A stretch of DNA of 61,869 nt, filler included, from Dugesia japonica (taxonomy: Eukaryota): NCBI GenBank assembly GCA_001938525.1. It is 6 parts of 6 records of this genome, joined end to end, with 100 filler letters (N's around TTAATTAATTAA, not from the genome) between each part and the next. Parts side by side here need not be neighbours in the genome. Positions count along the whole stretch, not along the records: positions 32,046 to 40,772 come from MQRL01551412.1; 5 more parts are not named here. One strand, 5' to 3'. Shown piece after piece: positions 2,951 through 61,720 of this stretch (position 1 is its first letter; the number at the start of each line of letters is the position of its first letter). The notes under the pieces are model-generated. The model was given only the letters and a program-made list of their open reading frames with translations. It had not been told where the DNA came from and searched no databases. A program made the position numbers and the translations under genes.

Positions 2951-3268
2951 CAATAAATATAAAAAATGTTGAGTTTATTTGCTCTATTTTCAATTTTTTT
3001 AATGCATATTTTTACTTCATATTTTCAAAGACCTCACTTCAATAATCTTAAAAGACTGTCATATAGTGAGAAAAGAAGATAGTTAGTCTGAGTGATAGTG
3101 ATTAAGAGTTGATATAACATTTTTTTAATTTAAAATACTATAACTATTTGAGTACATTTTAATCATCTGATGATCCTTTTTCTTCTTTACTTGAAACTTG
3201 GTAACCGTGCTTGCTCTTTGGTTTAATTGGATTCTTCTTCCTTTTGATAACCAACATTAAGATACATT

Positions 3269-3620
3269 AGTAGGTAGATTGTTGCGCACTGTATCACCCC
3301 TCTCAAAGTCAACTTTTTTCAAGGTCACTGATACACTATACATGATTGGGATTGGTCTGTGATCTAGTACACTCAATTCTGATTGTTGGAAAATTTGAAG
3401 GTCGATTTTTCAAGGTCAAATTGGCACAGTATCCTGCGATCTGATTGTTCAAAGTAGTTCAAGGTCAAAGTGATATAGTATACCGCGTTTTGATTGGTCG
3501 AAACATTTCAAGGTCAAAGTGAGTTAGTATCTAGTGATCTGATTGTTAGAATATTTCAAGGTCAAATGAAAGTAGGTCAAGCTCATTTTCATGACAACTA
3601 TTTGTAGGTCAATGTCAACT
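3269..3620 (+). mobile_element. AGTAG-terminus element end (Polinton/Maverick-like TIR?) with TCAAGGTCA/TGATTGG tandem array
   Basis: Starts AGTAGGTAGATTGTTGCGCACTGTATCACCCC, shared with 11279, 32730 (rc), 37795 and 60106; followed by ~50-60 bp units containing TTCAAGGTCA and TGATTG(G/T). Confidence 0.7.
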
Positions 3621-11278: not shown

Positions 11279-11710
11279 AGTAGATAGATAGTAGAGCACT
11301 GGATCAACCAATCGTCAAGGTCAAATTTTTTAAAGGTCAGTGATCTAGTATACTTGATTCTGATTGGTTTAAATAATTCAAGGTTGAATTTTTAAGGTCA
11401 GTGATCTAGTATACTGAATTTTGATTGGTGGAAAATCTCAAGGTCGAATGTTCAAAGTCAGTGATCAAGTATACTCGATTATGATTGGTTGAAATAATTC
11501 AAGGTGGAATTTTCAAGGTCAGTGATTTAGTATACTGGATTTTGATTGGTTGAAAATCTAAAGGTCAAATTCTCAAGGTCGAATGTTCAAGTTCAGGGAT
11601 CTAGTATACTCGATTCTGATTGGCTGAAAACTCAAGGTCAAAGTGATTTAATATACTCGATTTAGATTGGTTGAAATAATTCAAGGTGAATTTTCAAGGT
11701 CAGATTCATT
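11279..11710 (+). mobile_element. AGTAG-terminus element end with ~60-bp TCAAGGTCA/TGATTGG array, inserted in a mariner
   Basis: AGTAGATAGATAGTAGAGCACTGGATCAACC begins exactly where the mariner coding sequence stops; about 14 AAGGT(C)-type motifs and 6 GATTGG motifs. Confidence 0.75.
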
Positions 11711-11880
11711 GAATGTCAATATTTTTTTTGTGTAACTTATAAATTTTTATTTCTATTGAGTTACTCAATATAATTTACTCAGAAATTAGTTACTCATTTA
11801 GAAATTTTCTTTGTTTTATTTGCATTTTCTTTGCTTTACTTGCATTTCTATTGCATTTTCTTTATTTTAATTTAACCAAT

Positions 11881-14130: not shown

Positions 14131-14889
14131 AATAACATTCTTCTGGTATGAGGAACCTCAGCACACATTCAGTAGGGGATATTTGCGCACTGCCTCAAGG
14201 GGTGCAAACACCCACCCAGACGTAATCGGATTATTACATAAGTTATCCAATCAAAGTTCTTATATGGTAGCTTCTGACTTAGTGCCCATCCGTATAAATA
14301 TATAAACCAGACTTTCTAAACAATTAACCATAATAAATTTAATTTATTTAATAGCTATTCCATCCAAGTTCATTAAACACTATAAAATTAAATACAATCA
14401 ATAAACCAATTGTTGAAAATTATATGTAAAGTATGCCCCTGAGCAATAGGATTTTTTTCATTTTAGTCATAAATACATAGAAATGAAGTAAAAATTTCTA
14501 AAAATTACTAAAAGGATTTTTTTTAATTTTTAAGAGGAAAAAAGGAATGGAGAAAGCGGAGGTTCAAAAAGAGGGTAGGTGAGTTTTTTGCAGAGGTACA
14601 CGCAGAAATGCAGACAGTTGGTGAAGATGAAAGATAAATGATTATATTATTTTAGAAGTGTTTGAAAATAGTACAGAGTTTCTATGTAGTGTTCGAATAT
14701 CTTTTAGATTTTCAGAGAAGTGTCGGAATATTATAAAGAATTTTTGAGATATATTAAAAGTTTATACAGAATTTCAGAGAAGTGTTGGAAAATTATTCAA
14801 AATTTCCGAGTAGTTTGTGGAAATTAATAAAGATTTCACAAAAGTCATAAATTGTTATACGATGATAAAATATTTCATACTCTATTTAA

Positions 14890-17574: not shown

Positions 17575-18290
17575 TAGAATAAAGCATTTTTATACAGCAA
17601 ACCCTATATAAAAAATGTTCAGTCTTTTATTCTGAGTTTAAAAATACCAAATTTGTTTGACTATCCTATGTATTTTCGAGAAAAGATAATTTTCTATCTA
17701 AGGTGGGACATAGTAACCGATAATTTTCTATCTTTGGAACAAAGCATATTTCTACAGAAAACCCTATATATAATATGTTCAAAGTTTTATTTTGAATTGA
17801 ATGCTATTATTTTTAGATCCATAGGATAAGTATCGGTCGAGAAATTCATGGATCAAGGTCAACTGTTCCAGTGCTGACATACCTTTTATCTGGGAAACTA
17901 AAAATATTCATATAGCAAATCCTATAAGAAATATGTTCCTATTTTAATTTTGAGTTTAAAAATACCAATTTTGTTATTTTATTATAAGTATTTCTTAAAA
18001 ATGAATTTCCTCTCCTCGGTGCGACGTGGTTCCTGGGAATTTTCTATCTTTTGAACTAAATGTATTCTTGCTCCAAACCCTATACAAAATTTGTTTGAAA
18101 TTTTATTCTGAATTGAATGTTGTCATTTTCAATACAATATAATAAGTATTGACTGAGTAATTTATAAAACAAGGTCAATTGTGTTAGTGCTGACATACCA
18201 TTTCTGAGAGAACCAAGCATATTCATATAGCGAATACTATACAAAAATGTTCAATTTTAAATTCATAGTTCAACAATACCAAATTTAAAT
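17575..18290. repeat. ~160-bp satellite-like monomers in alternating A/B (~320-bp) arrangement
   Basis: Five monomer starts near 17580, 17740, 17900, 18058 and 18216; A units carry AATACCAA, B units carry GAATTGAATG...CAAGGTCAA...GTGCTGACATACC. Confidence 0.75.
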
Positions 18291-19279
18291 TGTACGATAA
18301 AAATTGACCAAAACATTTTGTATTGAAAATTCGAATTTTCGACATTCCCGAGCAAACATTCGACTGTTCCAACTTGAATTCGAAATTTGTTTTCACATAT
18401 TCGTAACGACCAATCAAAATGGTTCCATACTAAAACAGTCAAAACAATGAAATTAGTAAAACATTCGGTGGCGGGGGAGCGGGGTAACTGTACCAGTACT
18501 GACAAATCTGCCTACTATCTTTGTATGATATTTTATTTTTGTTTTTATAACCTAGTGAATTTTTATCGGCGTTCACGGATCTTTTGTGCTCCATAACCTT
18601 GTCTCAAGTACTCCACCAAATAATTACAATTAGAATTATTTTATCTATATAATTATTATTTGATTTGAATAAATGAAAAATTTGATATTTTGAAATCAAT
18701 ATTAATTATTTCTGATTCTCCGGGAAAGTTTCATGTAATTAAATGTGCCCCATCCTTAAAAGGTTAAGAACCACTTTTATAATCACTGCGAATTTAGAAA
18801 ATTTCAAAAATATAACTTCATAGTTTATTTTCCAAAAATATTTTCAATAAAAAAATTGCCAAAAAAAAATTTTTTTTATTTGAAAACAGCAAATCATTTT
18901 AAATGTAAAACTCACTGTTCATTCAAAACATATTGTCTAGTCAAATTTAATTGATCGAGTTCTGAAAGAATAAAGACTGATTCATTTACGAATATTAATT
19001 GAAACTAAGAATATATAGATTTAGATCAAAACTAATGGAAATCTAAAGTTAAGTAAATAACGTAACTGTCTAGCCTGTAATTTATCATATTTATTTATTT
19101 AAACGATTTCAAAAAAATTTTAGAATTATGATTTTTTGATATAATTTCCAATATTATAAAATAATAAATTATCGAAATAAAAATCTATTCTTAAAATAAA
19201 ATAAATTCATTTATTTAAATAAATTAATTATAATTTATATATTGTTATCCAGTTTTCAATCGACTAAGATAACTATATA

Positions 19280-20869: not shown

Positions 20870-21800
20870 TTTAAAAAATGCATTATTTGACATGTAGAAA
20901 TGTACAATTATTTTTTACAACAAGCAGAAATAAACATTATTTTTGTATCGGGTGTATGAATTGTTTTGTTGATTTCCAAAACATGAAAATCACTCTTTTC
21001 AAAATAATTATTACAAAAAAATGCCTTTTGTAGTTTATGGTGATTTTGAAAGTTGGACAGACAGAAATACTAAAAGACAAAAGCATTTATCTCTTGGAAT
21101 TTATGTAGTTAGTATATATCATATTTTAAATGAATACAAAGAATTTCATGGTTAAAATATTCATGAACAATTAGTTTGAATTTTTAAATCACCTAAATAA
21201 TAAATTAAATGATTTTAAAGAAAATAAATTAATTAAAGAGTTTAATGCGGTAGAGTTAACTTACCCTGATTTTTCAGAAAAAACTAAATGTAGATATTGG
21301 TGATAAAATATAAACTCAACTGAAAGGAACCCTATGTTAGATCATGATCATTTCGATGATGATTATAGAGGATTTGCTCATAAATAATGATATCTACAAG
21401 ATAAATCTGTAAAAAGATTATTTATTTTATTTTATTTTCACATTGCTTCAGGTTATGATAAATATTTAATTATCAAAGAATTATTAGCAAAATATCCACA
21501 TAAAGTAAAACGAATAATTCGTCATAGCGATAAAGTTTATATTTCATTTCAAAATGAAAATATTAGATTTCTTTATTCATAAAGATTATGTCCAGCTACA
21601 TCAATTTATACAATTTATAAATTATTAACTCAATCATCAAACTATAATTATTTGAGATTTAGAACCAAAGAAGATATCATTTCCTTATGAATATGTAAAA
21701 GGAGAAAATATACAACAAATAATTCAATTATTAAAATCAGATAATATTCCAACTCTACAAGATTTTTTCAATACTCTTCAAAATCAAAAAATAACCAAAC
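20870..21800 (+). mobile_element. Polinton/Maverick/adintovirus-type protein-primed DNA polymerase B relic (exonuclease part with EndoVII-like insert)
   Basis: FCIGCMNCF, MPFVVYGDFES, LDHDHFDDDYRGFAH, FHIASGYDKYLIIKELL, IRFLYS, ISFPYEY in the order known for Polinton pPolB. Confidence 0.85.
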
Positions 21801-21869
21801 AATAGTGTTAGATGAGTTTTGAGAACTCATCGGATTGTCAACATCAAAAGTCAACTACATAAAATTTAT

Positions 21870-30456: not shown

Positions 30457-30878
30457 AAAAAAAATTAAATATTTTCAAAATTACGAAAATACACTAAGCG
30501 TAGATCAAAAAAGTTTCAAAAAAATGTTTCTTTTTAAAATGTTTATTAAAGTAACAAAACCTTTCAAAATAAAACGTTTTTTATTCACAAATATATGTTT
30601 ACTAATGCGGGAAACAAGTGGACAAAAAAATAAATTTTTGGAATAATCGAGTAGTACAGTAAATATCTGGTTCTTATACCATTGCCTAGACAAAATGAAG
30701 AAACAATACAAAAAACTGAAGAGGATAATTTCGAAAATTTTGAGAAAAATGAAAAACGTTTATTTTGAAAAGGTTTTTGTTACTTTAATAAAAATTTTCA
30801 AAAGAAAAATTTGTTTTTAAAACTTTTTTGATCTACGCTTTGTGTATTTTCGTATTTTTGAAAATATTTAATTTTTTT
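30457..30878. mobile_element. Foldback/MITE-like element with ~125-bp inverted arms enclosing a gypsy integrase fragment
   Basis: 30457-30581 is the near reverse complement of 30751-30878 (tacgaaaatacactaagcgtagatcaaaaaag / cttttttgatctacgctttgtgtattttcgta); the core 30583-30710 duplicates 29574-29700. Confidence 0.8.
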
Positions 30879-32045: not shown

Positions 32046-32085
32046 AAAAAAAATAATTTAAAAAAAAAAAAAATTAAAAAAAAAA

Positions 32086-32240
32086 TTTTCTTCAAAAAAA
32101 AATTTCTCGTCAAAAAAAAAATTCTTGTCGAAAAATTCTCGTCAAAAAAATTCTCGTCAAAAAAAAAAATTCTCGTCAAAAAAAAAAATTCTCGTCAAAA
32201 AAAATTTTCGTCAAAAAAAAATTCTCGTCAAAAAAAAATT
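32086..32240. repeat. Tandem repeat ATTCTCGTC(A)n, about 8-9 units
   Basis: Directly visible. Confidence 0.9.
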
Positions 32241-32245
32241 CTTTA

Positions 32246-32730
32246 CCCTCCCCCCCCCGGGCGGGGTGTTCTATGAAAATAGTTCTTTGTTAAAATGGAC
32301 TTAGAAAATTTTTCGATAAAAAGTATGACTCCTGATCTATGATNNNNNNNNNNNNNNNNNNNNNNNNNNNNNNNNNNNNNNNNNNNNNNNNNNTGAAAAT
32401 AGTTCTTTGTTAAAATGGACTTAGAAAATTTTTCGATAAAAAGTATGACTCCTGATCTATGATTTTCATTTTTTGTTAAGTGAACATAAAAAAATTTTGA
32501 AAAAAAAAATTTTTAAATTTAACCAAAATTTGCATGAGTCATCGGCTTTGTCTTATTCATCGATGACTCATCTTTAGGCTTCTATGAGTCATACCGATGA
32601 CTCATCGATGACTCATCGTCTTTGTCTCGAGTCAACGATGACTCACACCTATGACTCATCATCACAGATATATTATTTCTTCTTCGGCGGGGGGGGAGGG
32701 GGTGATCTAGTGTGGTACTATCTACCTACT
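32246..32730 (-). mobile_element. AGTAG-terminus element end (reverse orientation) with TGA(C/G)TCA cluster
   Basis: Reverse complement of 32701-32730 is AGTAGGTAGATAGTACCACACTAGATCACC; 7 perfect TGA(C/G)TCA at 32535-32658; inverted C-run/G-run pair at ~32246 and ~32688-32700. Confidence 0.7.
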
Positions 32731-33965
32731 GACATTCTATAAATATTCTTTAAGTGAGGTCTATGAAAATATGAAATGAAAATTTGCATTAAAACCGATT
32801 AGAAAATAGACCACTTATGGCTAAATAGGGGTAGATATAGCTAGAATTAGCTAAATAGTGGTAAATGATAGAAGATGGTGGGAAATAAGTGAAAATATAG
32901 CCAAATTTGGCTAAATATGAGTATACCAGGAAAATAAAGGGTAAATGATGAAAAATGATGAAAGTAGCTGGAAATGGTGGAAAATAAAGAAGAATTGATA
33001 AAATGTAGACAAATTAAGCATATTAAATGACTATGTATCGAATAAATGCAGTATAATTACGACTACGCTAGCTCTATTATGTCCAAACTCATATTTTATA
33101 ATGGTAAATCTTCTATTTTTTTAAAAAGTTTTTCTATGATAAAGAGAACAAAGACTTACTGAATTGTTTTCCCACTTCTAAATGTTCTACTCCAACTCTA
33201 CTCTGGTCTTCTCTCACTTAATATCTATCTCAAACTTTCTACTAGTTTTTCGCACTCTTTATTGGCCTCCTCTTTCACTTGCTGGTCTTATTCGACAATT
33301 CACTAGTCTTCTCTCACACTCGCTGACTTTCTCTCACTCGAATCTGGTCTTTTACCATTATAATATGGTCTTCTCTCACATTTTATTATTAAACTTGATT
33401 ATTTATTATCACACTAAAAAAAAGTTCATCACAATAAAATTTTACGTCAAAATTTCAAGGTGTCCTCTTCACTTCCTCAGCAGAACATTAATGATTCATT
33501 TCTTATTTTCAATATATTTTGAATTAAATCAGTAACCATTTAAAACTCAATTTTAAAATTCTATACATTTATAATTGTAAAATTGGTTTTATGTGATTTT
33601 ACTCAATTCTATCACTTCACACAAACATGAAAAGTTATTGATTTATATCACAATATAAGCTTAGACTTCATATATAAACGTACATTTTCGATAATACAAT
33701 AATGTCACCTATAATCAACAGATTTTTCGATATTATGATACGTGCAATTTAAGAAAATTCTTTTGAAAATTATTTTGGAAATAATAAAAATTTATTGATT
33801 TTTCGCTAAACACAACACTTGATTTGGCCTATATAAATATGTGAGAATGTATAAACTGCTGATATTACTAATTCGATTTTATCGATTAACCAATGAGAAC
33901 TATTGTTTCCTTTACACATATAACGTGCTTAATTTAAATGATTGATTATTGTTCAAGGTAATTCA

Positions 33966-41660: not shown

Positions 41661-43684
41661 ATTCAAAATAATTGGTTTTTCGATGAATCTTCAATTAATG
41701 ATCAAAGCTTTGTTAAACCAGATTTACAATTTGTAGAAACAGGTAAAAATTATTGTTGTTATACAAATTTATAGTTTTTCATTTATTTAGCAACAAAATT
41801 TCTTGAAGAAATCGAAAGGTTAAATGAGCTTTCATTAACTAATCCCATTAATAAGTTCAAAGTAAATTATTATATTTTTATGGAATTGCAATTATTGCGA
41901 GAATAATTATTGGACGTAACCATTGATCGTTTTTCAGAATTCATTTAATATAAAAGCTTTGATTAAAGGTTTTCTTGTTTTTGATAATAATTCTAATTTT
42001 GGACTTTGCCTTCATCAGGAATTGACTTTGCTGATAATAAGAATTATTATCAAAAACTCAAAAAAAGAAAATTTGATCAAAGATTTTATTTTAATAAATT
42101 GTTATAATTTATATTATAAATTAATTTTAATTGGTTAACAAAATTGTTTACAGACCAAACAGTTGCCAATTCATGAAGCTTGCAAAAAAGGAGATATTGA
42201 GAATGTGAAAATATATCTAATAGACAAATCAAATAAAGATGCTTCCGATATGGTAATTTTATACTTGAATTTCTTTGAATAAATCTTTATAACAATAAGT
42301 TACAAATGACCCCGATTCTTTGCGCATGCAAATTTGGTCAGTTAGAGATCGTTAAGTTATTACTGGAGGAAAATTGTGATTTTGAAATATATGATGCTGT
42401 AGAATATTTTTTGAAATTTAATTGGTAATAACTTTCATAAAAGTTCAAAAAGCGACCAATCCATTATGCTTGTGAACGAGGTGATGTGGAAATAGTGGAG
42501 ATTTTATTGAATTATAAATGCGATTTTGAAATTGGTGATGGGGTAAATTTTGAGAATTTATTAATTTTGTTTGACTGTTTGAACATTTAGCAAAGTTTAT
42601 TCCCAATCCATTATGCTTGTAGAAACGAACATGTTGATGTTGTCAAGATGTTACTGAAACGGAATTGTGATATTACAAAAAAAGACTTTGTATTGCGTTT
42701 TTGTATAATTCAATAAATGAAATTTCTTTATAGCAAAACCGACAACCAATTCATTATGCATGTAGTCGAGGTAATCCTGAAATTGTTCGTTTACTGTTAC
42801 ACGGAAAGAATCTAGAAGAACCTGACATGGTAATAAAATATCTATTTATGACCATAGTAAAAACCTTTTTAAACCAATTCTTCTAGTAAAAGTAAAATAT
42901 TTGATAAATAATAAATTTGCGAGTTACCAAAATTTAATTACATATAAATTGTATTTTCTATTTTCTTAGATAAATTTTCAAAACGCAAAATATTTTTTTG
43001 CATCAGTATTGGTCGTTTTTCTTCGTCTTCCACTATCAATTTTATGTTCTTAATTTCCAGTTGCTCCGTAATCTTTAAGAAATGTATTGACTGACGATTG
43101 AACTTCCACCATTTTCATTGCTATTTCTCTTTCAGATAAACCGCAATCTGAATATGCTACAATTTGTCCTTTTGAAAATTAGTTAGCTTTGTCATTGATA
43201 TAATTCCATCTAAATGCCACATCTAATCTATTTAAATTTACGCAAAACAATACAAAATACTTATTCAATTTATTTGATTTTATCAATCTTACAAGAAATC
43301 TATACGAAGTTTTGTTATTTAAAGTAATTTGTCTTATTTGATAATGATTAGATTTTATTTGTGCGTCTTTTATATTTAATAACTTCTTGTTACGCAGTTG
43401 TTGAGGTTAAGGTATGTGGACTTAAAAATTTTTGTTGAATACTGATTTATTGATTTTTTAAAAACTTGCAANNNNNNNNNNNNNNNNNNNNNNNNNNNNN
43501 NNNNNNNNNNNNNNNNNNNNNNNNNNNNNNNNNNNNNNNNNNNNNNNNNNNNNNNNNNNNNNNNNNNNNNNNNNNNNNNNNNNNNNNNNNNNNNNNNNNN
43601 NNNNNNNNNNNNNNNNNNNNNNNNNNNNNNNNNNNNNNNNNNNNNNNNNNNNNNNNNNNNNNNNNNNNNNNNNNNNNNNNNNNN

Positions 43685-52340: not shown

Positions 52341-53037
52341 ATTTTTCCGGTTTTGAATATGAATTTTTAAATTTGTTTGTTTAATTAACTAATGATGTCA
52401 TAATTTTATATTAATAAACCGTTGTAATGAATTTGAATTCTGATGTTAATGATTCGATGAGTTTTCNNNNNNNNNNNNNNNNNNNNNNNNNNNNNNNNNN
52501 NNNNNNNNNNNNNNNNNNNNNNNNNNNNNNNNNNNNNNNNNNNNNNNNNNNNNNNNNNNNNNNNNNNNNNNNNNNNNNNNNNNNNNNNNNNNNNNNNNNN
52601 NNNNNNNNNNNNNNNAATTAATAATTGTATCTCAAGATGAGATAAATAATTATTTCTCGAAACATGTAATATATTTTGAAATGGAGTTTCAGAGGTTTTA
52701 TTAACATATTGCCATTTCAGATTACAAATAGAATTATTGCTAGAATAATTTTTGGACAATTAAGTATTTATCGTATTTTTAAAGTTTTAATAAATTAAAA
52801 AGCTTAGATGAAAATGTTTTTATTGTTACGAGTTCCGAAAAAGAATCATTTTTCATTTATGGAAAATTCTAATCGTTGTCATATTTATTTTTATCACAGC
52901 ATTCCAATCAATATTAAACATTTAATTGTCAGTAATTTTATTAGTTACGTATTTTTATTTTTTCTTTTAATTTAATTTATTATCAATATTTTTCCTTTAA
53001 AATGAAATTACAAATCTCTATTTATTAATCATTTCAG

Positions 53038-56000
53038 ATTCAATGTGGACTGGATCACTCATTAGTTCTTACGGATAAAGGACGAGTATATTCCTGTGGT
53101 CTTGGTACTGATGGTCAAACAGGCTTACAAACATATGAAAATGTTTTCAGATTTAATGAAATTTCATTTCCTGAGTCCTCAATCGTAATCAAGTAATTAC
53201 ATTAAAATAACACAAAATATCTTTGATAAATAAAAAATTTCAATAATAAATTATGAATAAAATAAAATTACATTTGAGAAATAATTATTGAAAAACACTA
53301 AATAACGTTTTTAATAAATAAATATTAATGATTTCTTGCAATCTGATTGGTTGCCTACAATATTAGGTCGTTAAGTATTAGGTCCTTAGTTTGACAATCG
53401 ATATCTTTTAATATTTTACCTTGAAAATTATTTGCTTTCGTTTGAATGTTAAAATACGTCATCAACTTTTGATATTTCCAATTTATCAAAAACTATGTCA
53501 CATTAATATCGATTATAAACATTTAATTATTAAATTTTAATAAAATAGGATTTAGATTCTAGAATTTTAGTAAAATATAAAAAGTCTCTTGCAGTACTCT
53601 TGGATTTCATCGCGGCACACAGTTTGTGACACACTGTTCTAAATGAATTTGCAATGTGTAATACAATAACAACAACNNNNNNNNNNNNNNNNNNNNNNNN
53701 NNNNNNNNNNNNNNNNNNNNNNNNNNNNNNNNNNNNNNNNNNNNNNNNNNNNNNNNCAAAATCGCAATTTCTGAATCGCAGGTATCTTGAGATAAAGTAA
53801 AACCATAATATGCTTCCAAAATTAGACGATAGCTTCCAACTGGAGTTTTCTTTAGGTTGAATAATAACAAGACAAAATAAAAAACTACTTTTTTCTCTAA
53901 AATAGCTAAATCAATAATCAATACTTGCTCTATTTGAATTTATAATGATTGCAAATTCACTTTTGTTTAAATTAAGTTATTGTTTTATCTGAAGAAGAAA
54001 TTAATTTATTAAAATTTGGACCCAATTTTAGTATTAGAAAACGAATTGATAATTTTCAATTGCAATCAAAAATCGAGTCCTTTTTTAACTATTATTTGAA
54101 CACACACAAAAATAAATTTTGTCTAAAAATATTAGTTGTGATTTGGAACATGAATTATCTTTTAAGCACGTTTCAATTTCCGATTATATTGTCTTCTTAG
54201 ATCAAATTTTAAGAAACGATGGATATGTTAAAAAATTGGGCACATCTTTTATCGGAAATAGAATTTGCAGAAGACGACTGGTAAGAGCCCGGCTGAGATC
54301 GTATTGAGAAAGAAAATTAGCAGAGAAAAGTAGTACGAGTCAGAAGTTTCAGAAAGAACTAAAGAAAACATTTGAGAAGTGACTACTAATAGAAAATTCA
54401 AAATAGGAGAATATGTCCTCATCAAGGTAGAAACAAGAAATAAAAGTCAATACAGATTTGTATGTCCTTATCGAGAAAATTCACGAAAGACGGTATGCAG
54501 TACGGAGAAAATGGACAGCGATTAGAAATAAATGTGGAAAAACTTAGAAAGTTTCTTAAGAAAGAGGATATAAGGAAATAATTATTATTTAATAATTTCT
54601 GCCAATAGAAAGCGATTAAATTGAATATTAATATTTAATTAATTCTATCAACTATAGTTATCTAATCAGTTATCTGTTTAAGTAGTGAAATAAATTATGC
54701 CTAAAAATATTAGTTGTGATTTAGAAAATAAATTATCAATTTAAGATTTACCTAACATGGTATTCGTATTATTTTCGAATATGAGTTCCATCGTGGAACC
54801 AATGCAAAGCAAACAGTTCGGAACATAAACGAAGTGTGANNNNNNNNNNNNNNNNNNNNNNNNNNNNNNNNNNNNNNNNNNNNNNNNNNNNNNNNNNNNN
54901 NNNNNNNNNNNNNNNNAAGCCTCGTAGGCGACCTCAGACGAATGATAATCTGAAAGTTTTAGTTACTCTCAAATTAGCGACAAAGTTCAACGTTTCCATT
55001 CCAATAATATTAAATTGTTTTTACATGAAATTCTGACAGGAGATGAGAGTCCCAAACGCTAGAAATCATGGATTGATCCGAGTCAAGATTCAAAACAGAC
55101 TGCAAAGCAAAATTGTTTTGGAAAGAAAGCAATGCTCCGCGTTTGGTGGGATTAAAAGGGTATGGTATATTATTATCTTCTAAAACAAGGTGAAACTATT
55201 AAATCTGATCTCTATAAAAAGAATAATGGAGCTGAACAATTGTTTGATTACCAAATGTTCAGAATGGACCAAAAGACATGGTAAAGTTATTTTTTTCAAT
55301 GACAACGCACCGTCATATACTTCAAAAGGAGTAAAAAACACGTTTAAAGATCTAGCCTGGAAAGTACTCACCCACCCGCCATACTCACAAGATCTTGTTC
55401 CATTAGATTTTTATCTGTTCCGATCAATGGCACATGGACTTGCTGAGCAGCAATTTAAAACCTACGTAGATGTCCAAAAATAAGTCTCTGAATGGTTCGC
55501 CTCGAAACAAGAAAAATTCTTTTGGGACGGCATCCACAAGTTACCTGAAAGATGGGAGAAATTTGTAGTTAATAATGGTAATTTCTTTGAATAAAATATT
55601 TTTATGAATCTTTTAAAATTTTCGTGTATTGTTTTTCAAAAAAATCTGCATTACTTTCCCGTACACCTAATAATAGACTAGTTAAAACTTATTGGCAAAG
55701 TCATAAAGTAAGGCCGATGAGTTCCATATGAATTAAGTGACCAGCAGAAAAGAAATTGTCTAGAGGCTTTTTTAGTGTCGCGATATAAATGCGAACCTTT
55801 CTTCAACGTATTGAGACATGTGATGAAAAAAGGATTTCATTTTATCGACGTCTATGCAATTATATAAAATATTTAGTGACTTCTATGCAATTTTATAAAA
55901 TATTTAGTGACTTCTATGCAATTTTATAAAATATTTAGTGACTTGTTCGCAATTATATAAAATATTTAGTGACTTCTATGCAATTTTATAGTAAAAAATA

Positions 56001-59000
56001 GTATGCGGAGGAACATATTTGAGCAAATCTTACGTTTTTTCCATTGTGCAAATAATAATTTGTCAAATATAATTGATAACACGGGGAAATTGCTGCCGTT
56101 AATTACTGGAAATAAAAGAATTGCCATGAAAATTTTATATCAGAACCACAGTTATCATGTGACGAGTGTATTTATACGAGGAAAGCCTATTAGGACGAGG
56201 TATAAGGTATGGTGCATGAATACTGTATCAGGATATCTAGTAGATTTTGACAAGTATCAAGGAAAAAATTTTACAAAAAATGAAAAATATGAAAAAGATT
56301 TTGGTGCGATATGATAAAACAGATAATTTTGTCGTAAACATTCCTAACGATAAGAAGAGAAAATGTGATGATCTAACTTGTCCGTCAATCATAAGAACCA
56401 TGTGTAAAAAATGAAATATCGGTTTATAAACTGTTTTGAAATTTATCATTTAAGGAATTATTTTTTTTTTGTATATTTATACATATTTTGTCTATTTTTG
56501 TGCAATAAAATTAAAGATTATATGTTATTTATGTATGACTATCAATAAACATATAAAGTAGCTGAAGTGCTTAGCGTTGCCATATGGCAACGTCTTATAT
56601 CTTTGGCTAAAACATATTTTTTCGCAAAAACCCCATATTCTTTCTAAACAGATGTAACTAATATTTATTTAAAAGGAAATTTCAAATTTCAAAAAAAAAT
56701 TTAATTCAAGTTATTAAGGGTTAAATATCATCAATTCTTGATATTAAATTATTTTTAAATTATACTTTTTGATGGANNNNNNNNNNNNNNNNNNNNNNNN
56801 NNNNNNATATTTTGAACTTTTATAATTGATGTTACAATTCTACATTGATAGAAAAATTTCCTGTTGTGCTGACACTAATTTGTCCCTAACAAATGATAAT
56901 CGAATTTTCGGATGGGGAAACAACGAATATGGCCAATTGTTTGAACATATAAATGAAATTCAAATTAATCAACCAACTGAATTAATATTTGACAATAGTG
57001 AAGAAGTTCAAGATGTTTTAGCATTAGGCTCATTTTGTTTAGTTGTTACCAACACCGATAAAGTAATTATTTCAATTATAANNNNNNNNNNNNNNNNNNN
57101 NNNNNNNNNNNNNNNNNNNNNNNNNNNNNNNNNNNNNNNNNNNNNNNNNNNNNNNNNNNNNNNNNNNNNNNNNNNNNNNNTAGTATTGTATGTTGCAATC
57201 ATAATCAATTAGTTTCATTTCACGATTATGATTTTAGAACTAAGAAGGACGATAAATTATATTTGTAGTTAATACGTTCACTGTCATACCAGTTAAATAC
57301 AACTCGGATTAATGTTATGCTTAATACGACTACGTAGAAAAGCGGCGCAAGAAACGAGCGAAGGCTTAAGAAATTCTTTAAGTTATATGAAAAAATTAAA
57401 ACTGAAAAGGTGAAAATAATTTGATATTTCAAAGTAATAAGCTATTCTATTTAAATTGTCCAAGGTCGTCATGGTTCCATAAATTTATAATTATACTTAA
57501 AGACGATATTCAATTGGTCGTTCTTGTATTTATCTGCTTGTGACTGTCTAATCTTTATTTAAGACAGAATGCATGAAAAAAGAAATTTGGTGTGCCTGCA
57601 GACTAAAAAACGTTTGCGAATCACTGGTCTAAAGCCTGAACTGAATCGTTAAATTTTCAACTCATTATCAATTAAATCTTACTTTAAAGAATTCTATTTT
57701 ATATCGAAAAACGTAATCATTTTAAAATATTTTAAATTAAATGTATTTATTCAGTCTCTATTGTTTGAACAAAGATTAATGCGATTATACTGAATATAAG
57801 ATGACTATAAATTCTTAATTTTAAAAATTCTTAGTTATTAAATTTTTTAAAAATTTTTAAATACAAAATTATTTTATAATCTAATAAAACATTTTTACAA
57901 TAATATTTTATTAAAGTTACTATTTAATTCTATAGTAATTTTAATAACATATAATAAAAAAATTTATTATTAGATTATAAAATAATTTTGTATTTAATAA
58001 TTTTTAAAAAATTTAATAACTAGGAATTTTTAAAATTAAGATTTATAACCATCTTATATTCAGTATAATCGCATTAATCTTTGTTTAAATGTATTTGTTT
58101 AATCAATTCAAAAAATAAACATAAATTTAAATCTATATTATAAAAATAATAATCGCTGTAAAATGTTTTTTATTCATAGCAGTCACCAGCCTCAATAACT
58201 TTCTTCATTTTTTCAATAGATGCATTCAAGGCTTTACCCATTGGAATATTTATGAATTTTGGTAGATCACTATTTAGAAATGTTCTTATTTCATAAATAT
58301 GTTTAAAATCTGTAAGACTTCTCTCCAGTCTTTTAAAAAAATAATTGTCACAAATATTTATATCTGGTGAATATGGTGATTAACGAAGAGGTTTTACGTT
58401 TTTAGAGTCTAAGAATTCAATAGTATCGTGAGCAATATGTGATCGAGCGTTGTCATGCATAAGATACATATTTTGTGGAGAAAACTTTAATGAGATTTTG
58501 AAGAAATTGAATATCTCAGAATTGATCATTTCATTCCGTTCTAATATTTCAAATTAAAGGTACCACCTTTGTGAAATAGCAATAATGACCATTTACTTAT
58601 TTCCCATCGTTGATCTGACAGGAGTCTGAGTAGNNNNNNNNNNNNNNNNNNNNNNNNNNNNNNNNNNNNNNNNNNNNNNNNNNNNNNNNNNNNNNNNNNN
58701 NNNNNNNNNNNNNNNNNNNNNNNNNNNNNNNNNNNNNNNNNNNNNNNNNNNCTTTTTTTGTAATAAACCAATTAATTCATTACATCGATCAACACGAAGA
58801 GTTTTGTTGCCATCTGCAAGAACATGAGATACCCATGTTGTGTGATACCATAGAACCTCTAGATCTTCTCGAATTACACGTTGAACCATCTAATGGGTTA
58901 TTTGCAAATATTCGGATATTTCGTCAATAGTCATACTACCATATTCTTCTCTACACCTTTTAACATGATCAACGTTCCTCGCTTTTTCTTCTTCCACTTC

Positions 59001-59510
59001 CTTTCTGACGCTGAAAGGTTTATCTTTCTCCAGTACGAAATTGTCTCATAAGTCTTATAATTTGAATAACACTTATATATATCTGAAGCAATGCTTTATG
59101 AAGGATCTCATAAACCTCATAAAAAAATTTATTTGATAATTTGTAATAAAAAAAATAAAATATCACGATTTGTTTATTTTTATATTTTTGAAATATATTT
59201 ATTTCATAATCAGATAATGGCTTGGGGATTTGGAAAATTCAATGACCACGCAACAGCATATAGATATCCAACAGAAGTACAATTAATTGGAAATAATGGG
59301 GAAATTGTAAAAGAAAAGATAATTAAAATTCGAGGATCTGTTCATTATGCTGTGTTGATGACTATATCGGGTAGAATGTTTGTTGTTAGCAATTATCCAA
59401 GAGATAAGCGGAGCATAAATTCAGATAGATTTGTATCAAATGAAGTTATATTTCCTAGACCTGTTATTGATTTCTGCAGTGGTTCTGATAGTATTTTCTA
59501 CTCTATGTGA
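53038..59510 (+). CDS. RCC1L: RCC1-like protein (RCC1L/WBSCR16 orthologue), 3' exons 53038-53192, 56852-57062, 59214-59510
   Basis: Phase-compatible GT-AG splicing gives CGLDHSLVLTDKGRVYSCGLGTDGQTGL...IFGWGNNEYGQL...QINQP...IMAWGFG...VIDFCSGSD*, matching recalled RCC1L motifs (CGQDHSLFLTDKGEVYSCGWGADGQTGL, LFGWGNSEYLQL). 5' exons not found. Confidence 0.85.
53600..53900 (-). mobile_element. Mariner N-terminal fragment, intronic
   Basis: LLLFNLKKTPVGSYRLILEAY...LSQDTC resembles the mariner N-terminal HTH. Confidence 0.6.
53975..54100 (+). mobile_element. Penelope-like N-terminal fragment
   Basis: LSEEEINLLKFGPNFSI motif typical of PLE N-termini. Confidence 0.55.
54119..54762 (+). mobile_element. 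Gypsy family B 3' end: IN tail, PPT, LTR 54569-54757, then TGGTA
   Basis: FKIGEYVLIKVETRNKSQ; PPT aagaaagagga; LTR homologous to 30148 and 48372. Confidence 0.85.
54763..55670 (+). mobile_element. Decayed mariner, intronic
   Basis: IFEYEFHRGTNA, KAMLRVWWD, NDNAP, HPPYSQDLVPLDFYLFRSM; TIR ttactttcccgtacacctaa + TA. Confidence 0.9.
55850..55992. repeat. 31-bp tandem repeat GACTTCTATGCAATTTTATAAAATATTTAGT, about 4.5 copies
   Basis: Directly visible; a second short mariner fragment (VPYELSD, RIETCDEK) precedes it at 55675-55845. Confidence 0.9.
56003..56724 (+). mobile_element. Internally deleted piggyBac (PGBD3-like) with right end
   Basis: MRRNIFEQILRFFH, FIRGKPIRTRYKVW, Cys-rich tail; subterminal palindrome CGTTGCCATATGGCAACG; terminus AAGGG-TTAA at 56716-56724. 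Confidence 0.88.
57768..58085. mobile_element. MITE-like foldback with ~125-bp inverted arms
   Basis: aacaaagattaatgcgattatactgaatataagatg ... catcttatattcagtataatcgcattaatctttgtt. Confidence 0.85.
58170..59050 (-). mobile_element. Decayed mariner, intronic
   Basis: WVSHVL, LMHDNARSH, SPYSPDINICD. Confidence 0.85.
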
Positions 59511-60105: not shown

Positions 60106-60315
60106 AGTAGGTAGATAGTGGCGCATTGATTTTTCAATTAAGACCACCCCCGGGCATAAAAATTTAAAAGAAAATTAAAAACGGGCATAAAAAATTTAAA
60201 AGAAATTTAAAAACTGGCATAAAAATGTAAAAGAAAATAAAAAACGGGCATAAAAATGTAAAAGAAATTAAAAAACGGGCATAAATTTTAAAAGAAATTT
60301 AAAAATGGGCATAAA
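60106..60315 (+). mobile_element. AGTAG-terminus element end with 6 x ~31-bp GGGCATAAAAA tandem array
   Basis: AGTAGGTAGATAGTGGCGCA...CACCCC, then units at 60151, 60182, 60214, 60245, 60276 and 60306. Confidence 0.7.
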
Positions 60316-60529
60316 GTTGGTGATAATATTCAATGAAAATCAATTTTACAATTTAAATCAATATTAATTTGATATAATTGAATTTAAAAGAGCTTAATTT
60401 AAATTAAATATGATTCGATTGTTCTAGAATCGATTGTTTAAATGCATATATGTAATTAATAAATACACACCTATTCTAAAACCTATATAAACAGAATATT
60501 TAATTAATTATTTATTATTTCAACTGAGA

Positions 60530-60966
60530 ATGCCAGTAACTCTTACCATGGAAAATTCGTCTAAACTAAAATTCGAATTTGAAAAACCAAGAAATTACTT
60601 CAAGCATGAGATGATTTTCTAAAAGAAATCAATAAATTATACTTTTCAAGTAAGATTTAATTTGCTTATTACTTTTTTAATACTTTTATTCAGGATCCAG
60701 TAAAAGTAAAACCTTGTATTTAGGATTTGTACATATCTGAAATCAGTGACAAAGATCAAAAGACTCTTAATGAATTATTCGTAAGAATTAATGGAAACGT
60801 AAAAATTGAAGATGCTACATTTATTAAATCTAAAGAAGAAAATGTTCAAGAAAGTAAATCAATCATTACAGTTGAAATTATTGGTTATAAGAAATTGGAT
60901 GATATAATAAAACCAATTTGGAAAGTTAAATCAACTGAAAAGTGTGAGGATAATTTTATTGAATAA
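60530..60966 (+). pseudogene. Two-exon small gene of unknown family, paralogue of 504-955
   Basis: TATATAAA at 60484; ATG 60530 (MPVTLTMENSSKLKFEFEK); 44-bp intron 60650-60693; exon 2 DPVKVKPCI*DLYISEISDKDQKTLNELF...SIITVEIIGYKK...IWKVK; single frame with two stops. Confidence 0.6.
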
Positions 60967-61141: not shown

Positions 61142-61720
61142 TTACTTAAAGTATTTGGATCTCTTTCTAATAATACTTATAATACTAATAATAATTATAA
61201 TAATAATAATACTAATAATACTAATAATACTTGTCTTAATAATAAGTACTAAAGCTTTTAGTTTGATATTCATTTGAACTTTATTTATTGATTCGGGACT
61301 TGAATAACTTAAATCGCCAGTGAACTCTTTAATTAATGCTTCTTTTTCTAACATATAAAACTCATTTACAACAGTTGAAAACTTAAGTTCATGAAATTTA
61401 ACTAAATTATCCATTAGAAATGACATGTTTTCCAATGAATCTGGATTAAATTTTAATTTATCCATTAATTCTAATCTTCTAAGTATTACAAGACTATCTA
61501 AGAATTGGATTTGAATAAGAGCTTGTAGACCACTTTGTAATGTTTTTTCTAATTTATGACGATAAAGAATAATTTAATTGTTTGATATTTCCTCCATAGC
61601 ATCGATAAATGGGTCAAAATTGAATAAATTTGTCAGATTATTAGCAACATCTACTTTACATTTGTTGAGATAATCTTAATAATTCAACGATAAACAGCCT
61701 TTAGTCTCTGAAATATTTTA
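61142..61720 (-). pseudogene. Decayed ORF of unknown function, tail-to-tail with the 60530 gene
   Basis: The 107-aa ORF extends upstream in frame through two TAA (DYLNKCKVDVANNL...LQIQFLDSLV-like segment); no recognisable domain. Confidence 0.35.

Follow-up and report, generated by a model that had tools for sequence, protein, structure and literature searches.

The cluster of AP-1 sites at 32535..32658 lies in a stretch that is best explained as the outermost ~700 bp, at one end, of a DNA element present in many copies in an A+T-rich animal genome and having AG termini like those of Maverick/Polinton elements. Other ends with the same terminus carry arrays of different motifs in the same position. 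The window, by which we mean the whole stretch of DNA that was analysed (61,869 nucleotides of Dugesia japonica, filler included), is made up of six A+T-rich draft contigs in which remains of mariner, Penelope-like, gypsy-like and DDE elements abound. The parts of the end that concern us here, and the repeat adjoining it, are the following.

32046..32242, no strand assigned: A-rich array of about ten 16-19-bp units with the core TTCTCGTC, cut by the contig start
32246..32266, plus strand: C-run then G-run, left arm of an inverted pair
32274..32343, no strand assigned: second identical copy of the 70-bp unit (100% self match), before a 50-N gap
32394..32463, no strand assigned: unit of ~70 bp, which other copies have in tandem and where the stretch reaches its greatest depth, recognised from depth, a variant at 32452 and joints from 32460 to 32402/32396
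32535..32658, no strand assigned: AP-1 array 72-189 bp from the terminus, in which seven sites are perfect TGA(C/G)TCA and one is CGAGTCA
32686..32702, plus strand: G-run between the core and the AP-1 array, right arm of the inverted pair
32697..32730, minus strand: terminal core, starting AGTAG at 32730, common to the ends at 3269, 11279 and 60106 and, more weakly, 18516
32731..33119, plus strand: flanking high-copy repeat, outside the element and the target of its insertion, found in uninterrupted form in three of three contig sets and at 3061-2997

The element interior is absent, as the contig (32046-40772) begins within the A-rich array. The two 70-bp copies on either side of the 50-N gap are probably a collapsed tandem array, and G-runs precede the 70-bp unit in other copies too (loose ends before 32418). 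The G-run at 32686..32702 is one that we would liken to a GC-box. The original prediction, in which an inverted pair brackets the AP-1 cluster, stands as regards the letters of the two arms, which are present at 32246-32257 and 32689-32700, but not as regards their position, the left arm being ~280 bp further to the left than described and beyond the 50-N gap; the true arm-to-arm distance is not fixed, because the same 70 bp repeats on both sides of that gap. The C-run/G-run pair was also considered as the ends of a nested element, and rejected since the flanks do not match. An A-rich stretch elsewhere in the contig (36695-36760), with a TTTCCCGCC motif that we take to be E2F-like, resembles the TTCTCGTC units of 32046-32242.

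A recount confirmed seven perfect copies of TGA(C/G)TCA, which we take to be the AP-1 consensus, at 32535, 32564, 32585, 32598, 32609, 32639 and 32652, together with CGAGTCA at 32628 and the span of 124 bp for the seven; clustered sites of this consensus, a feature of AP-1 enhancers, are present. Read on the plus strand the heptamers are TGAGTCA twice and TGACTCA five times, and six of the seven sites extend to the full nine-letter ATGA(C/G)TCAT. The sites are in mixed orientation with unlike spacers, and the array is not a simple tandem repeat, Tandem Repeats Finder (TRF) giving just a weak 11-bp period (score 50, 68% matches). The whole window holds 12 copies of TGA(C/G)TCA against 5.83 expected, just five of them outside the array, and in 100 order-3 Markov simulations the largest cluster within 124 bp was of one site (90 times) or two (10 times) and never more; the seven-site cluster is far above chance expectation. 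If A/T microsatellites and the A-rich array of the element are left aside, no other 7-mer family reaches seven copies per 124 bp.

The AGTAG terminus at 32730, on the minus strand, was confirmed, and the proposal that the cluster is carried by an element end is supported by a sharp boundary at this position, by a depth thousands-fold above that of the flank, and by the occurrence, in other copies, of AP-1 cores set in different spacers. These observations come from the alignment of three contig sets and one raw RNA run (four of the 24 runs listed) to 32394-33293. Forty-five RNA reads diverge right behind 32730 into mixed flanks (agreement 0.44), and in each of the three contig sets the repeat from ~32731 continues elsewhere into different upstream sequence (loose letters before 32733), which represents an empty site; an uninterrupted copy of the same repeat lies within the window at 3061-2997. 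Since the flanking repeat is found without the element and reads diverge at 32730, an AGTAG-ended element has been inserted into another repeat. The same repeat (2997-3061, 32731-32794) adjoins two of the five ends in the window, once directly and once at ~200 bp, which could reflect a preference for insertion there or, the repeat being high-copy, simply chance.

The summed contig depth of the unique part (33144-33293) is 9-12, relative to which the AP-1 sites (32544-32663) stand at about 1,700-20,000-fold, the terminal bin at 5,300-9,500-fold and the 70-bp unit at about 60,000-114,000-fold, figures that give an order of magnitude only and are not copy numbers. Because this depth is thousands-fold over the unique flank, the AP-1 cluster is a feature of a repeat family and not a single-copy enhancer. 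Other copies differ from the one in the window. Joints place the 70-bp unit in tandem, and the near-site at 32446 is a perfect AP-1 site in 79-90% of the contig depth and in 11 of 11 RNA reads. Loose ends and joint inserts contain TGACTCA or TGAGTCA in spacers that have no counterpart in the window copy, and one joint variant has TAAGTCA in place of a perfect site. A lack of AP-1 sites in other copies had been named in advance as the observation that would count against the prediction; what we see in them is intact cores within new spacers, and none of the substitutions among the 40 of 193 listed falls inside the seven heptamers, which suggests that the heptamers are conserved across copies.

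It might be supposed that this region is simply unstable, so that neutral minisatellite turnover amplified a chance AP-1 palindrome in copies that are mostly silenced, and the sites are idle. Some tandem array is present at each of the ends, the 70-bp unit is satellite-like at the depth given above, the AP-1 array is without enrichment in the RNA run, and the fold of the 347-bp strand is better than that of every one of 100 shuffles (z -4.0), as would favour slippage and inversion. We nonetheless regard idle turnover as unlikely, given that the seven cores are perfect, and six of them extend to the 9-mer, while the spacers are unlike, and that other copies keep intact cores in new spacers. Spacer identity is 0.74 at 1-3 bp from the AP-1 cores and 0.47 at 4-12 bp, for cores that were picked as perfect.

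A 14-letter end motif occurs four times in the window (32730, 3269, 11279 and 60106) against 0.005 expected, and a more divergent AGTAG end is present at 18516. The original prediction overlooked the other motif arrays that occupy the same position in these sister ends.

3269-3620, 11279-11720 and 60106-60320, plus strand: further AGTAG ends, each with its own motif array
17650-18516, minus strand: further AGTAG end with its own motif array
40385: weak AGTAG end

The ends at 3269 and 11279 are followed by 49- and 61-bp arrays that contain TCAAGGTCA and GATTGG, and the end at 60106 by a 31-bp array that contains GGGCATAAA; we take these motifs to be nuclear-receptor half-sites and CCAAT boxes. 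None of the four other ends contains an AP-1 site. Within the 2.7 kb inside the five ends, in regions that were drawn after the arrays had been seen and are to be compared with 57 kb outside, lie all 10 copies of TCAAGGYCA in the window, six of the seven copies of GGCATAAA and seven of the 12 AP-1 heptamers. The 10-mer GTGATCTAGT is distributed differently: it occurs at 32702 within the terminal core and recurs in the arrays at 3269 and 11279, and all four of its exact copies are inside ends. Mainly because the motifs split in this way, we would read the shared motif as the site of an element protein and the family-specific motifs as sites for host factors. Just inside the 60106 end are two ORFs, 61142-61573 (minus strand) and 60540-60966 (plus strand), the first of which has three relatives of 201-236 aa with 64-80% identity but belongs to no Pfam family, and is possibly an element gene.

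The division of motifs between ends bears on a different explanation of the array, namely that its palindromic units are iterons or subterminal repeats bound by an element-encoded protein and resemble AP-1 sites by coincidence. The transposase-binding sites of hAT and CACTA elements are typically short repeats that lie near the terminus in both orientations and are unevenly spaced, and a similar cluster is found in a phage-like contig, where there is no AP-1. The same motif forms clusters in five unrelated viral contigs, three of them simple coding repeats within reading frames (two of the three at the same locus) and the other two as follows.

L032, 3001-3112: six TGA(C/G)TCA at 21-bp spacing in both orientations, in an ORF before a primase gene; phage-like and iteron-like
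L035, 2963-3064: five AP-1-like sites in an intergenic stretch of a giant-virus bin

The phage-like contig, which has primase and NinB neighbours, lends some weight to an incidental match, and since it has a similar cluster AP-1 function is not proven by the motif alone. Against this, the four other ends that share the core lack AP-1 sites altogether, and the family-shared 10-mer with its four exact copies inside ends is a better candidate for the site of an element protein, so we judge it improbable that the AP-1 units serve that purpose. In 21 Maverick-like viral loci, mostly without intact ends, there is at most one AP-1 site per 300 bp.

The class of the element can be indicated, but we describe it as Maverick-like rather than as a Maverick, as the contig supplies one flank only and contains no second end, target duplication or linked genes; facing pairs of ends are absent from all six contigs of the window. 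The hAT, Academ and Tc1-type elements whose ends we take to be CAG or TAG were set aside because there is no fixed pyrimidine before the AG (the outer bases are C, T, A, T and T), although with four of the five outer bases being pyrimidines this rejection leans on the divergence behind 32730. Vertebrate Mavericks end in (AGT)2 or (AG)3, with 6-bp duplications and terminal inverted repeats (TIRs) of 46-1,447 bp (PMC8097293), and in all five ends of the window AGTAG followed by G or A matches five of the six letters of the (AGT)2 motif, the sixth being different. Helitrons, which have 5'-TC and CTRR-3' termini and a GC hairpin 10-12 nt inside (PMC2817418), do not correspond to an end reading CTACT on the plus strand and AG on the minus strand, and no such hairpin was seen by eye 10-12 nt inside the end; nor does the AG/CT terminus agree with the TG...CA or TGTNR of LTR retrotransposons and Ginger elements (PMC2836005). 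The terminal motif gave no matches in scans of metagenome and prokaryote collections, and a looser form of it matched six viral loci, of which L006 was inspected and, being inside a coding-looking stretch, was taken as chance.

The window also contains a polymerase relic.

About 20990-21850, plus strand: decayed DNA polymerase of the protein-primed Maverick type, interrupted by stops and frameshifts, on a different contig from the AP-1 end

This relic has 152 relatives at E<=0.001 (best 7.6e-13), and among 14 long matches chosen from the 150 relatives listed, Endonuclease_7 is present in all 14 and DNA_pol_B_2 in eight; it is also matched by the PolB ORFs of nine of the 21 Maverick-like viral loci. 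A Pfam search with the relic itself gave no match and a word-based search with it found nothing. A short weak match to the PolB ORFs of three Maverick-like loci at 14244-14297 (minus strand) is possibly a second relic. Lizard Mavericks number fewer than 10 copies (PMC3014272), beside which the thousands of apparent copies here are unusual for a Maverick; Mavericks have been reported as expanded in Dugesia (10.64898/2025.12.11.693146), and Schmidtea Polintons as silenced by piRNA (PMC8532177). The accessible portions of PMC11410931 and PMC6431247 contain nothing further on element ends.

A last alternative is that the element supplied a wound or stress enhancer which the host has co-opted at this locus to drive a neighbouring gene. 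There is precedent in LTR10, whose AP-1 arrays act as enhancers, with motif number tracking binding (PMC466953). We consider co-option here highly improbable, however, as the sequence is multi-copy and inserted in another repeat, and as the 8 kb to the right has just transposon relics as its recognisable content (one DDE_1 match among the seven ORFs of the contig that were scanned), the left side being missing. No host gene was recognised to the right of the element in the contig among the 49 ORFs listed, a search that small exons may escape. The RNA run contributed 260 reads, 259 of them partial, on both strands and none with at least 99% identity to this copy, and no start site was seen over the array in this one run, in which mean depth was at most 11 per bin. 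The RNA over the array is read-through from other copies, with no sign of activity at this copy. A search of Rfam gave three matches, all under the gathering score. Elsewhere in the window there are host genes with short introns in 42150-42830, 53020-53200 and 56826-59510, with ankyrin-like (by eye) and RCC1-like exons, and, at 57764-58089 and 30458-30878, MITE- or fold-back-like inverted repeats, which are long and have short spacers.

The explanation that we favour, and to which we would give an even chance, is that of a Maverick/Polinton-like end built like an adenovirus inverted terminal repeat (ITR), in which a shared core is followed by an array that is a candidate for recruiting host bZIP proteins. 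In such an end the shared core of ~30 bp and the 10-mer GTGATCTAGT would be bound by replication or integration proteins of the element itself, while the AP-1 array, which probably grew as a palindromic GATGACTCATC unit underwent short duplications and inversions, would be a docking platform for host bZIP factors of the Jun/Fos/ATF type. Docking of this kind could serve the element as an enhancer or as an origin helper, comparable to the neighbours of the adenovirus core origin. Sister families with arrays that we take to be nuclear-receptor-like and CCAAT-like may each be tuned to a different cell state. The stress or wound responsiveness of the original prediction would plausibly follow from this arrangement, as a consequence and not as a finding. 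Several observations count against the explanation: the deviating sixth letter of the terminus, the position of the polymerase relic on another contig, the sparse AP-1 sites of the Maverick-like viral loci, the high apparent copy number, the clusters in unrelated viral contigs, the low RNA depth and missing start site over the array, and the TAAGTCA variant. More tentatively still, as a possibility that we think will probably not hold in full, families of these elements share a terminal origin and swap homotypic host-factor cassettes (AP-1, or nuclear-receptor and CCAAT) that tune them to cell state, with thousands of AP-1 cassettes and ~100,000 AP-1-bearing tandem units spread through a (probably regenerating) animal, such that injury could switch the element on and its copies act as a pool of wound enhancers or a sink for Jun/Fos.

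To our knowledge little has been established of how Mavericks are activated in the host. If families that share an end do swap host-factor arrays, then the trigger of each could be read from its end and would be open to testing, and in an animal with an AP-1 wound response thousands of cassettes would confound, or feed, the enrichment of motifs in chromatin data on regeneration; should the sites be neutral, or serve an element protein, then the end is like that of any transposon. Arrays of AP-1 sites at the ends of mobile elements, and sites for host factors that follow a terminal origin, are both already known kinds of arrangement. We found no report in the open-access literature of AP-1 or family-specific motif arrays in Maverick ends, and no literature match to the letters of this end or array.

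The end described here resembles the TIRs of Maverick/Polinton elements in its sharp, AG-starting terminus, the first five letters of which are as in (AGT)2 (PMC8097293, PMC6431247); the range of 46-1,447 bp for those TIRs would accommodate it, and a Maverick-type PolB relic is present in the same window. It differs from them in the sixth letter, in a far higher apparent copy number and in its motif arrays, which the accessible portions of those sources do not describe. The resemblance to the adenovirus ITR is one of architecture: both have a terminal core and then host transcription-factor sites that vary between lineages, although in adenoviruses these are single NF-I and NF-III sites with a shown role in replication (PMC6410123), whereas here they are homotypic arrays of putative sites. 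The AP-1 VNTRs of LTR10A/F in human endogenous retroviruses similarly place many AP-1 motifs in a tandem-prone terminal repeat of a mobile element, but with regular units of 28-30 bp and support from ChIP and CRISPR (PMC466953), while the end in Dugesia has a non-TG terminus, mixed orientation and irregular spacers. Finally, the Polinton TIR-derived repeats at C. elegans eri-6/7 are likewise end sequences apart from full elements with putative transcription-factor sites, and differ in their low copy number and in that the accessible part of their description mentions no AP-1 array (10.1101/2024.01.15.575659).
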